In this document: piece by piece, positions 1 to 4,097 of the stretch
Position numbering within the stretch: the stretch's first letter is position 1
How the letters are laid out: each line of letters opens with the position of its first letter
IMG/VR virus record: IMGVR_UViG_2703718868_000011
Length of the DNA: 4,723 nt
Source of the DNA: a virus
Lineage: Duplodnaviria; Heunggongvirae; Uroviricota; Caudoviricetes
Strand: one strand, 5' to 3'
Notes under the pieces: model-generated
What the model was told of the DNA's origin: nothing
Seen by the model: the letters and a program-made list of their open reading frames with translations, nothing else
The model's database searches: none
Position numbers and translations under genes: made by a program

Positions 1-879
1 ATGAGCAAAAAGCAGAGTTCCACCCCACACGATGCGCTGTTCAAACTCTTTTTACGCCAACCGGACACGGCTCGTGATTTTCTTGCGTTTCATTTACCGG
101 CACCCATTCACGCGCTTTGTGATATGAAAACCCTCAAGCTGGAGTCGAGCAGCTTTATTGATGACGATCTGCGTGAAAGCTATTCCGATGTGCTGTGGTC
201 GGTGAAAACGGAACAAGGACCAGGATACATCTATTGTCTGATTGAACATCAAAGCACCTCAAACAAACTGATCGCATTTCGCATGATGCGTTACGCTATT
301 GCCGCAATGCAAAATCACCTTGATGCCGGATACAAAACGTTGCCGATGGTGGTGCCATTGTTGTTTTACCACGGTATTGAAAGCCCCTATCCCTATTCGC
401 TGTGTTGGCTGGATTGTTTCGCCGATCCCAAACTGGCAAGGCAGCTTTATGCCTCCGCATTTCCGCTGATTGATGTCACCGTCATGCCTGATGATGAAAT
501 CATGCAGCACCGACGTATGGCGCTGCTGGAGTTAATTCAAAAACATATTCGTCAACGCGACCTGATGGGGCAGGTAGAGCAAATGGCCTGCTTATTAAGT
601 AGTGGATACGCTAATGACAGACAAATCAAAGGGCTGTTTAATTACATACTGCAAACCGGCGACGCGGTACGTTTTAACGATTTTATCGACGGCGTTGCCG
701 AACGTTCACCGAAACACAAGGAGAGTTTAATGACAATTGCGGAAAGATTGCGGCAGGAGGGGGAACAATCCAAAGCCCTGCATATAGCCAAAATAATGCT
801 TGAATCCGGAGTCCCTCTTACAGACATCATGCGCTTTACCGGGGTGTCAGAAGAAGAGTTGGCTGCGGCGAGCCAGTAA
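1..879 (+). CDS. Rpn-family recombination-promoting nuclease (YhgA-like, PD-(D/E)xK fold)
   Basis: Complete 292-aa ORF, ATG at 1, TAA at 877-879. N-terminal [10 protein letters not shown] motif and an Asp ... EHQ ... K arrangement (SYSDVLW / [10 protein letters not shown]) typical of YhgA/Rpn PD-(D/E)xK nucleases. Length fits E. coli RpnA-E (about 290-300 aa). The paralogue cannot be assigned without an alignment. Its promoter lies upstream of the window. Confidence 0.8.
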
Positions 880-978
880 ATTTCTGTCTCGCCATTTCAA
901 AAGTTGCCTACACCCTCTGCTTCAACGCCACCAGCAGGTGGCATAAGGGGGTAGCATGTACCGCACCATCCCTTTATA

Positions 979-991
979 TATCAAATAGTTA
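979..991. promoter_or_regulatory. Candidate IHF binding site in the integrase-distal intergenic region (possible att arm)
   Basis: TATCAAATAGTTA matches the IHF consensus WATCAANNNNTTR at every defined position and follows an AT-rich tract (TTTATATA). It sits about 40 bp beyond the 3' end of the integrase gene, where att sites of integrase-encoding elements usually lie. The consensus is degenerate, so a chance match is possible. Confidence 0.3.
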
Positions 992-1032: not shown

Positions 1033-2028
1033 TTATGGGCAAAATCTGGACAACTCCGCAACCGGATTGAACCTTACCGCGTCCTGGAGATAATCAGGTG
1101 CAAAGTGCGCATAGGTCATTGTTTGCTGAATTGTGCTGTGCCCTAAAATACGCTGAAGGGTAATAATGTTCCCTCCATTTATCATGAAATGAGTTGCGAA
1201 TGTGTGCCGTAAAACATGCACAGACTGACCGACTGGTAAATCAGGCCGCACAGTCCTTATTGCACTTCTGACTATCGCATAACTGGGATTCATTAATCTT
1301 CCAGTCGCTTTGACTTTAATCAGAGATTCAAGATCTTTAGCTATAGGAATAACCCGCCGCGATCCATTCTTTGTCTCCATGAAAATAACCTTCCCACCAA
1401 TTATGTGTTCACCTTTAATATTGGCAACTTCACCCCAGCGCCCGCCTGTAGCCAGGCTTAACAATACAGCCTTAAGATTATCGCCAGATAAAAGTGCGGT
1501 TAGCCTGGGAATATCATCATGTGCAAGATAAGCCATTTCCGGCTGATTAATTGTTAGCTTGCGTATCTCGTGAAACGGGTTATCACCCACAAACTCTTCA
1601 ACATCAATCAGCTTTTCAAAGAAACCACTCATCATTGCACAATAACGATTTACCGTTGACTGCTTAATTCCGCGATTCATTAATTCAAGGCGATATCTGA
1701 TAATATTTTTTCGGGTTAAGTGGTCACTTCTGTTAATACCAAGCTCTTGCATATCACGAAGAACCGCTTCAATTCTGACCCGATTCATCGCGCCATAACG
1801 ATGATTCTTACCGTGGTACACCCACCACAGTTCCAGAAGATCGCTTAACGCTTTACGTTCAATAGGTTTTTCGACCCAGTCCTTATCGTGATAATGCGTC
1901 AGAACATGGCGTTCATACATCGCCGCTTCACCACGGGTAGGAAATCGCCGCCGAAATCTTCTTCCTTCAGATCCAGCAGGCCGCACGTCCACACAGTATT
2001 TGCCATCAGCGAGCTTCTTAATCGACAT
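1033..2028 (-). CDS. int: Tyrosine site-specific integrase, P2-like phage integrase family
   Basis: Minus-strand ORF. Preferred start is the ATG at 2028-2026 (MSIKKLADGKY...), preceded on the coding strand by GGGGG about 8 nt upstream; the track ORF extends to 2064 but that start has no ribosome-binding site. Stop is TAA (complement of 1033-1035). C-terminal catalytic signature is present: HVLRHTFATHF (His-x-x-Arg box), GHSTIQQTMTYAHF (catalytic Tyr). About 331 aa, close to P2 Int size. No terminator-like hairpin between the upstream repressor gene and int, suggesting co-transcription. Confidence 0.9.
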   Translation of the reverse strand: MSIKKLADGKYCVDVRPAGSEGRRFRRRFPTRGEAAMYERHVLTHYHDKDWVEKPIERKALSDLLELWWVYHGKNHRYGAMNRVRIEAVLRDMQELGINRSDHLTRKNIIRYRLELMNRGIKQSTVNRYCAMMSGFFEKLIDVEEFVGDNPFHEIRKLTINQPEMAYLAHDDIPRLTALLSGDNLKAVLLSLATGGRWGEVANIKGEHIIGGKVIFMETKNGSRRVIPIAKDLESLIKVKATGRLMNPSYAIVRSAIRTVRPDLPVGQSVHVLRHTFATHFMINGGNIITLQRILGHSTIQQTMTYAHFAPDYLQDAVRFNPVAELSRFCP

Positions 2029-2094: not shown

Positions 2095-2394
2095 TTAACC
2101 AGTCTTCTTGCCGGAGTGGGATGATTCCGCTTCGCTTTGCCCAATGTGTGCGAGAGCCGGTACCACCTGCCCGGCCTTTGGTTCGACCTCATCGAACAAA
2201 AACCAGTCACGGTATTTACGGAAACGAGCGTGCCGCAAAAGAAGGATCCCAAAATCAAGAGGCATCTTAGATTTCCCACTTTCATAGCCATGATATGTAT
2301 AGTAATTAATTCCAATTAAATCAGATAGTTCCTTCATTTTCATCCGTTCAGACTCTCTGATAAGTTTTAATTTCTCATTTTGCGGTATTGACAT
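2095..2394 (-). CDS. Small HTH (XRE-like) immunity repressor, P2 C-type by size and position
   Basis: The 117-aa track ORF was re-started at the internal ATG 2394-2392 (MSIPQNEKLKL...), giving 99 aa, with GGAG (complement of 2407-2410) about 12 nt upstream. Helix-turn-helix pattern in MKELSDLIGINYYTYHGYESGKSKMP. It lies directly upstream of int on the same strand and diverges from the rightward early operon, as does the C repressor of P2 (also about 99 aa). Confidence 0.75.
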   Translation of the reverse strand: MSIPQNEKLKLIRESERMKMKELSDLIGINYYTYHGYESGKSKMPLDFGILLLRHARFRKYRDWFLFDEVEPKAGQVVPALAHIGQSEAESSHSGKKTG

Positions 2395-2501: not shown

Positions 2502-2927
2502 ATGCAAGAAGTCACTCAAAACGCGCCTGAATCGCCTGCCGAAACACAGTGCGATCAGTTGACAGATGCGCCAGAAACCGCACACCTGAAGACCAGCCGC
2601 AAAGCCCCTGAACGCCAGGAAATCCGGCTTTCACAAAACCCTTCTCATCTCCTGTCAAAAGAAGGGTTTGCGATGTATATCGGCAAGACCGTTGACGCCA
2701 TCGTGAGCATGGCAAAAGCAGGGAAATTACCCGCTGTGTACATGGCGGACCCTCTCAAGCCTGGCGGAAACGCCGAACTCTACATCAACCGGAAAGCGTG
2801 GGATGAAGCCTGCGATCGACTCACTGAAAACGCACCGCAAGAATGGCACGAATGGGAAAACCGACTTTTTTTATTTAAGCCAGCAGCTGGTTCACGGAAT
2901 AAACGCATCAGTAAAAAAGCTGCGTGA
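2502..2927 (+). CDS. Excisionase/Cox-like winged-helix DNA-binding protein, first gene of the rightward early operon
   Basis: ATG at 2502 preceded by GGAGG (2489-2493) 8 nt upstream; TGA at 2925-2927; 141 aa. The track ORF begins at a GTG at 2421 with no ribosome-binding site. The segment FAMYIGKTVDAIVSMAKAGKLPAVYMADP resembles the DNA-binding core of Xis/Cox/AlpA-type proteins. Alternative start at ATG 2673 (GAAGGG 6 nt upstream) would give 84 aa, closer to the sizes of P2 Cox and 186 Apl. Position matches cox/apl in P2-like phages. Confidence 0.65.
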   Translation: MQEVTQNAPESPAETQCDQLTDAPETAHLKTSRKAPERQEIRLSQNPSHLLSKEGFAMYIGKTVDAIVSMAKAGKLPAVYMADPLKPGGNAELYINRKAWDEACDRLTENAPQEWHEWENRLFLFKPAAGSRNKRISKKAA

Positions 2928-2957: not shown

Positions 2958-3188
2958 ATGATTAAACACACGGAAATCAGACAAAGAATAAAAATAAGCG
3001 ACGACGCTTCAGTAATAATCTGTAATCAGAACTTAGATGCCATTGTTCGGGCTGGCAACGATTTGTATTTCCATTACCCGACCCATTGCATCGTTGTGAC
3101 ATTTGAAACAGAAGAGTCCTTAAAAAATGCAATGGAGCAGACAGGATTTCAGAATGAAACAGTAATAAGAAAAGACAACTGGGCATAA
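2958..3188 (+). CDS. Hypothetical small protein (76 aa), early operon
   Basis: ATG 2958 with GGAGG (2947-2951) 6 nt upstream; TAA at 3186-3188. Only 30 nt after the preceding stop. No recognisable motif. Confidence 0.6.
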   Translation: MIKHTEIRQRIKISDDASVIICNQNLDAIVRAGNDLYFHYPTHCIVVTFETEESLKNAMEQTGFQNETVIRKDNWA

Positions 3189-3240: not shown

Positions 3241-3576
3241 ATGACACAGCGACGCAACTTCCGCACTGGCACAGAACGCCACGCAGCCCGTTTCTCAACC
3301 AGTGCATCACGCAGCAACACGCACTACAGCCTGCAGGAAACGCACGCCACACCTGACGGGCATCCGGTTAAACAAACCGGTAAACACACCTGGCTGATTA
3401 ATGATGCCGGAATTGTCATTCACCGGGGCGCACGCAACCCGATTACCGGGAATACCTGTTACTCCCTGACTCGCGGAGATGAGCAGTTCGGGCAGGATTT
3501 CACCCTGCACGAAGCATTAAGAACGGCAGACCGATTAATCAGCGGTCGCAGTTTTCAGCATCCATGGGGGAATTAA
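3241..3576 (+). CDS. Hypothetical protein (111 aa) in a GC-rich segment; coding status uncertain
   Basis: Longest ORF in the segment and on the operon strand, but there is no ribosome-binding site before ATG 3241 and the N-terminal half is Arg/Thr/Ser/His-rich and low in complexity. The C-terminal half (WLINDAGIVIHRGARNPITGNTCYSLTRGDEQFGQDFTLHEALRTADRLISG) looks more protein-like. Its stop (TAA 3574-3576) lies 3 nt before the next start. Confidence 0.4.
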   Translation: MTQRRNFRTGTERHAARFSTSASRSNTHYSLQETHATPDGHPVKQTGKHTWLINDAGIVIHRGARNPITGNTCYSLTRGDEQFGQDFTLHEALRTADRLISGRSFQHPWGN

Positions 3577-3854: not shown

Positions 3855-4097
3855 ATGGACAAAGAATATAAGGTTCTCATCAATAAAGCCCTTGAGCGCT
3901 TTAACTTTCGCCTGAGTATGTCAGGAGTTGCCGCAGAACATGCAGCAAGAGACTCACTGACCAGAGCAATTCGCAGCCTGTATGATGCAGCTTTTTACGC
4001 TGACGATCTGGATGCTCTCAATGAGCTGTCTGAGCTTGTTCGTGATGCAGAATGCGGAGTACATATTGAGCCATACGCACTTGGGAATGCAGCATGA
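3855..4097 (+). CDS. Hypothetical small acidic protein (80 aa), early operon
   Basis: ATG 3855 with GGGGAAA about 7 nt upstream; TGA at 4095-4097, which overlaps the next start as ATGA. No motif recognised. Confidence 0.6.
   Translation: MDKEYKVLINKALERFNFRLSMSGVAAEHAARDSLTRAIRSLYDAAFYADDLDALNELSELVRDAECGVHIEPYALGNAA

Follow-up and report, generated by a model that had tools for sequence, protein, structure and literature searches.

The closest described system to the locus analysed here is the RpnA-L/RpnA-S pair of Escherichia coli K-12, for which the initiation site, the inhibition of toxicity, of the SOS response and of DNA cleavage, the stoichiometry and pH-dependent dissociation of the complex, and the structure have all been established experimentally (Zhong et al. 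2023, PNAS, PMC10400941). Chromosomal SPA tagging exposed small C-terminal proteins, denoted RpnS, and a start-site ribosome profiling signal (Onc112 and retapamulin) was reported for RpnA-S. When K240R+E241D+M244L were introduced on the K-12 chromosome, RpnA-S was abolished and the SPA-tagged band was gone; a single internal start is described for rpnA, and no larger species is mentioned. According to that paper, which cites dRNA-seq data for an internal promoter, most RpnA-S stems from a transcript that begins inside rpnA and is shorter and more abundant; full-length RpnA-L was undetected at native levels in K-12. Without RpnA-S, the long form (RpnA-L*) led to slower growth. SOS induction by RpnA was blocked by RpnA-S but not by RpnB-S, and RpnA-S had no blocking effect on RpnB, so that antitoxin action is cognate-specific. 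Purified RpnA-S stops DNA cleavage by RpnA-L in vitro; the complex comprises two RpnA-S and two RpnA-L chains by SEC-MALS and dissociates at pH 9-10, and in the crystal RpnA-S is a dimer of three-helix bundles (PDB 7TH0).

The same design recurs more widely. RpnB-E, the plasmid-borne RpnP2 and other bacterial Rpn proteins follow the same layout as the gene described below: the N-terminal domain is of the Transposase_31/PD-(D/E)XK type, a second start lies inside the gene, and the tail is short and helical. In the homologues examined these tails begin with MTIA, as here. The tails of the paralogues are longer (as much as 101 aa in the loci examined) because they hold more four-residue repeats, whereas the present tail belongs to the shortest class. 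Variation of such repeats, inserted 8-20 residues downstream of the initiating Met, has been described among homologues, as have stand-alone RpnS genes that lie beside some rpn genes and to which the DUF4351 family is linked (PMC10400941). Protection against phage was shown for plasmid RpnP2, with T-even phages, and not for RpnA. The part in phage defence that a preliminary description of this DNA had named for Rpn genes thus stands for RpnP2 and does not extend as such to RpnA, for which a comparable role may be supposed by analogy with its paralogue; the PADLOC 2023 defence models gave no match to RpnA. A further parallel, cited in PMC10400941, is Cas11d within cas10d: as with RpnA-S, a shorter in-frame protein is made from an internal Shine-Dalgarno (SD) sequence and ATG and interacts with the full-length product. 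Cas11d, however, is required and works together with the long form as a subunit, whereas RpnA-S opposes it.

We analysed a stretch of 4,723 nucleotides from a Caudoviricetes record (IMG/VR IMGVR_UViG_2703718868_000011), referred to here in its entirety as the window. Positions 1-879 are E. coli rpnA (yhgA) with its already known gene within a gene. The sole long open reading frame of this segment opens at ATG 1 on the plus strand, closes at TAA 877-879 and specifies the 292-residue full-length RpnA-L, a PD-(D/E)XK DNA endonuclease and the toxin of the pair, an assignment that draws on family models and on comparison with K-12. The whole window protein scores 693.4 bits against the NCBIfam equivalog NF007361 for RpnA (cutoff 583) and 157 bits against the Rpn family model TIGR01784 (cutoff 52), and Pfam PF04754 (Transposase_31) covers residues 8-209 with 304 bits (cutoff 21; E = 5.6e-91). 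The identity of bases 1-946 to complete E. coli chromosomes reaches 99.8%, in a region where RefSeq places rpnA with bioH as its convergent neighbour, and 5,425 of 5,426 complete E. coli genomes contain a match to rpnA. The corresponding K-12 MG1655 gene (b3411, labelled rpnA in RefSeq) is the same gene in the same chromosomal place, upstream of and convergent with bioH, and it shares with the window gene the length of 292 aa, the SD sequence AAGGAG at K240-E241, the start at M244 and a 49-aa product. Only three of 292 residues differ from K-12: one substitution, L191Q, lies in the nuclease part, and the tail that both products share has the other two, A274T and L282V. Mutation of D11, D63, E82 or Q84 abolished all phenotypes of RpnA in K-12 (Kingston et al. 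2017, PMC5350276); these residues are intact in the window protein, because the sole differences from K-12 lie at positions 191, 274 and 282.

Within this gene, the hexamer AAGGAG at 718-723 (plus strand) lies six nucleotides (AGTTTA) upstream of an in-frame ATG at 730-732, and the frame that opens there ends at the stop codon 877-879 to give 49 residues, exactly as the preliminary description had set out. In codon terms, K240 occupies 718-720, E241 occupies 721-723 and M244 occupies 730-732. The stretch CACAAGGAGAGTTTAATGAC has the same letters in the window and in K-12, and the DNA of positions 703-734 shows no difference between the two. We therefore find the internal start at the same position as in K-12 RpnA, a comparison that had been proposed beforehand. 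The product of the nested frame rpnA-S (730-879, plus strand), which is assigned as the antitoxin RpnA-S from its identity to a crystallized protein and from homologues, aligns residue for residue with chain A of PDB 7TH0, 'Recombination-promoting nuclease RpnA', a 49-aa chain that begins at M244; the match runs end to end with 47 of 49 positions identical (E = 2.7e-25). The two substitutions relative to the crystallized protein, A274T and L282V, both fall after the first helix. The expectation that an internal start yields a short C-terminal neutralizer of the Rpn nuclease is borne out by this correspondence to the published K-12 protein (PMC10400941). Searches of the 49-aa peptide against Pfam gave no match to DUF4351 (PF14261) at E values up to 0.1; the sole Pfam match, LPD23, was sub-threshold (E = 0.039) and was disregarded.

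The window taken by itself says little about whether this signal is used. AAGGAG occurs once against 1.8 occurrences expected, and the pattern AGGAG-N4-10-ATG occurs once against 0.72 expected, with at least one occurrence in 97 of 200 shuffled sequences. Within the window alone, the SD-ATG motif is thus no more frequent than chance would have it and, because it is not enriched, in-window statistics are unable to carry the claim of an internal start. It could be argued from these numbers that AAGGAG is incidental to the coding of Lys-Glu, perhaps acting as an SD-like pause site from which no protein is initiated at 730, and that a Lys-Glu pair with Met three codons on was kept for reasons of the protein. 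This argument meets the K-12 data directly: RpnA-S was detected there and was lost on mutation of the K240, E241 and M244 codons, the 49-aa protein was purified and crystallized (PMC10400941, 7TH0), and the stand-alone RpnS genes that adjoin some rpn genes speak against it as well. Together with the behaviour of residues 240-241 in the homologues (see below), these observations make an incidental motif virtually untenable as an explanation. That the internal-start signal is real follows from conservation and experiment, not from its statistics in the window.

The energy of the duplex with the anti-SD sequence is -8.5 kcal/mol for ATG 730, which ranks eighth among 505 candidate ATG, GTG and TTG starts on both strands. 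It had been suggested that this ribosome-binding site is better than most gene starts in the window, which is only roughly right: pairing is stronger than at four other starts in the ranked list (3580, 4589, 4299 and 2394) and weaker than at three phage gene or ORF starts (2502, 2958 and 2028), which puts the site in the range of the real phage gene starts of the window, though not at their top. In the predicted local RNA fold, the SD sequence and the AUG (718-732) are unpaired, and the fold around them is predicted to be no more stable than that of shuffled sequence (z = +0.71). The assignment of 718-723 as the SD sequence of an internal initiation site rests on this fold, on the K-12 mutant and on the homologues. 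At least 3,963 of the 5,426 complete E. coli genomes share, letter for letter, a 32-mer that covers both the SD sequence and ATG 730; the number is a lower bound, since copies with a mismatch at the centre escape megablast. A consensus scan of the plus strand inside 1-879 found no sigma-70-like promoter.

To follow the site beyond E. coli, we took 80 loci that encode relatives of RpnA, with one genome per species, and kept 73 with intact open reading frames of at least 285 aa; together with the window gene, these gave 74 sequences of 44-99% identity. The proteins were aligned, the DNA under each column was read, and the anti-SD energy was scored in the 17 nucleotides upstream. At the M244 column the codon is ATG in 72 sequences, GTG in one and ACG in one, so that a start codon is present in 73 of the 74. 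The mean anti-SD energy is lower here than in any other column scored (-7.58 kcal/mol; background across the gene, -2.33 +/- 2.66 kcal/mol), and energies of -8 kcal/mol or lower are found there in 39% of the sequences compared with 2.7% in the background. The SD tract codes for different residues in different homologues, with K, E, R or Q at position 240 and E, T or others at 241. Pairs such as KE, EE, RE and QE replace one another while a purine-rich GGAG/GAGG tract is kept in many lineages, which points to selection on the nucleotides, not on the amino acids, and argues against a motif retained for the sake of Lys-Glu.

The tails that follow the start have a regular construction. In the 20 homologues printed they begin with MTIA(E/Q/D), and across the set their lengths range from 49 to 101 aa and equal 1 mod 4 in 61 of 74 homologues. 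The differences consist of tetrapeptide repeats such as EGRQ or GRxE, from about ten residues after the Met, and our comparison thereby reproduces the four-residue repeat variation described in PMC10400941. The window tail is the minimal form without extra repeats, as in K-12, and the internal start with its ribosome-binding site lies at the boundary between conserved domain and variable tail, the same site as in K-12. Each of the Photorhabdus and Xenorhabdus genomes (loci L029-L079) has numerous Rpn paralogues and contributed several of the 80 loci, and the RpnS tails there reach 101 aa through long runs of GRxE-type tetrapeptide repeats. In these paralogues, the GGAG tract is found farther upstream and an extra in-frame ATG precedes the aligned start by two codons; judging by sequence, the exact start may be shifted by two codons there.

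With little doubt, then, rpnA is an intragenic toxin-antitoxin system in which an internal ribosome-binding site and ATG 730 give rise to RpnA-S, an inhibitor of RpnA-L. On the K-12 model, initiation at codon 1 would yield RpnA-L, the 292-aa PD-(D/E)XK DNA endonuclease, which would damage DNA and be toxic, while ribosomes that load on the internal AAGGAG (718-723) would start at ATG 730 (M244) in the same frame and produce RpnA-S, the last 49 residues. RpnA-S would fold as a three-helix bundle, dimerize and bind RpnA-L in a 2:2 complex in which DNA cleavage is blocked; because the short product would block the long one, a single gene would amount to a toxin-antitoxin pair. RpnA-S is identical to the C-terminal oligomerization domain of RpnA-L and presumably engages that domain to form the inactive 2:2 complex. 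Since both are read from the same DNA, a change in the interaction helix would appear in toxin and antitoxin together, and RpnA-S and RpnA-L must both carry A274T and L282V. The window allele, which is 99% identical to K-12 with SD and ATG unchanged, would be expected to behave like its K-12 counterpart. The earlier proposal of a one-gene toxin-antitoxin unit accordingly has the support of the K-12 data, and through near-identity probably holds for the window allele too.

A second in-frame ATG had been put forward as a weaker candidate start at 583-585 (plus strand; M195), where a 98-aa frame opens. The stretch upstream, GGGGCAGGTAG, has an anti-SD energy of -9.0 kcal/mol in the window, nominally as good as that of ATG 730, and the codon is in frame with rpnA; a third isoform of 98 aa made with GGGGCAGGTAG as ribosome-binding site might act as a longer antitoxin or as a modulator. 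The pairing, however, proceeds through G-rich, non-canonical matches and not through GGAGG, and it depends on a single base. At position 572, the window has A (CAG, Q191) where K-12 has T (CTG, L191); A572 raises the SD-like score to -9.0 kcal/mol from the -6.8 kcal/mol of the K-12-type allele, and a search of 5,426 complete E. coli genomes located the exact A572 32-mer in only 89. The homologues give the candidate no better standing. In the M195 column, 66 of 74 sequences have Leu, Ile or Phe, Met being confined to the Escherichia/Shigella group and one further locus (L022), and in mean anti-SD energy across the 74 this column falls outside the 15 lowest. The 98-aa product would moreover begin inside the conserved Transposase_31 domain (residues 8-209), and PMC10400941 describes a single internal start, with RpnA-S lost in the triple mutant and no larger species mentioned. 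On the strength of homologues and allele counts, we judge ATG 583 to be an ordinary internal Met codon and reject it as a second start: conservation is lacking, and the SD-like stretch before it owes its strength to a minority allele. This evidence is comparative and indirect, and it leaves a third isoform highly improbable in general; that the minority lineage with A572 (Q191) makes an in-frame 98-aa product, joining the end of the nuclease domain to the RpnS tail, is likewise very doubtful. If made, such a product could shift the balance of toxin to antitoxin in the A572 lineage. The five matches listed for the A572 32-mer overlap with strains that give the best rpnA match (for example CFSAN061769, 2014C-4587 and 2015C-3163).

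To return to ATG 730, it is the published RpnA-S start, and a 2023 paper already covers gene, start site, antitoxin function and structure for the near-identical K-12 allele, so the value of the site as a discovery is small. Its use lies in annotation. The RefSeq records examined (K-12 and other E. coli) list only the 292-aa rpnA coding sequence, and the nested 49-aa antitoxin gene is therefore unmarked. Our comparison also shows that sequence alone suffices to recognize start codon, SD tract and four-residue-repeat tail in Rpn homologues down to about 44% identity.

As had been noted, rpnA sits beside a prophage integration site: a P2-like prophage, absent from K-12, begins about 50 bp after the rpnA stop codon, inside the 3' end of bioH. 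The bioH stop codon lies at 908-910 on the minus strand, and the insertion point of the prophage falls among the last ~11 codons of that gene. Identity with K-12 weakens from position 941 and is gone after 946, while 923-4723 matches, at 98-99% identity, the left arm of a prophage that a few E. coli genomes carry at another site; in strain JNEC-KY202, the same prophage adjoins chpS, not rpnA. The 24-bp overlap or core at 923-946, CAACGCCACCAGCAGGTGGCATAA, mixes the K-12 bioH sequence (..CCAGCAGGTGACAAAA) with the attachment site on the chpS side (..CCCGAAGGTGGCATAA), and this hybrid holds the inverted repeat GCCACC/GGTGGC. The rpnA-prophage junction of the window occurs in none of the 5,426 complete E. 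coli genomes. We found no functional link between the prophage and rpnA; as a weaker alternative to the 98-aa product, the prophage about 50 bp downstream might alter the 3' end or the termination of the rpnA and rpnA-S transcripts.

The prophage arm encodes an integrase (1033-2028, minus strand), a C-like helix-turn-helix repressor (2095-2394, minus strand), a Cox-like protein (2502-2927, plus strand), a DUF4761 protein (3241-3576) and a DUF4754 protein (3855-4097), and in strain JNEC-KY202 the arm runs on to a replication endonuclease. The gene order is P2-like but does not correspond to a known phage: the closest deposited phage, P88, has only the integrase and repressor region in common, at 76.5% identity. 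Between the cox-like and DUF4761 genes lies an open reading frame of 76 aa (2958-3188, plus strand) whose ribosome-binding site GGAGGGG (-9.8 kcal/mol) is among the strongest in the window; it had no match to a PHROG family, and the gap that it occupies is unannotated in RefSeq in the near-identical JNEC-KY202 prophage. The top anti-SD match of the entire window (-11.9 kcal/mol, AAGGGGGT) stands upstream of ATG 956, which opens a frame of just ten codons (956-988, plus strand) in the prophage arm right after the attachment core, and this strong match is probably due to chance.
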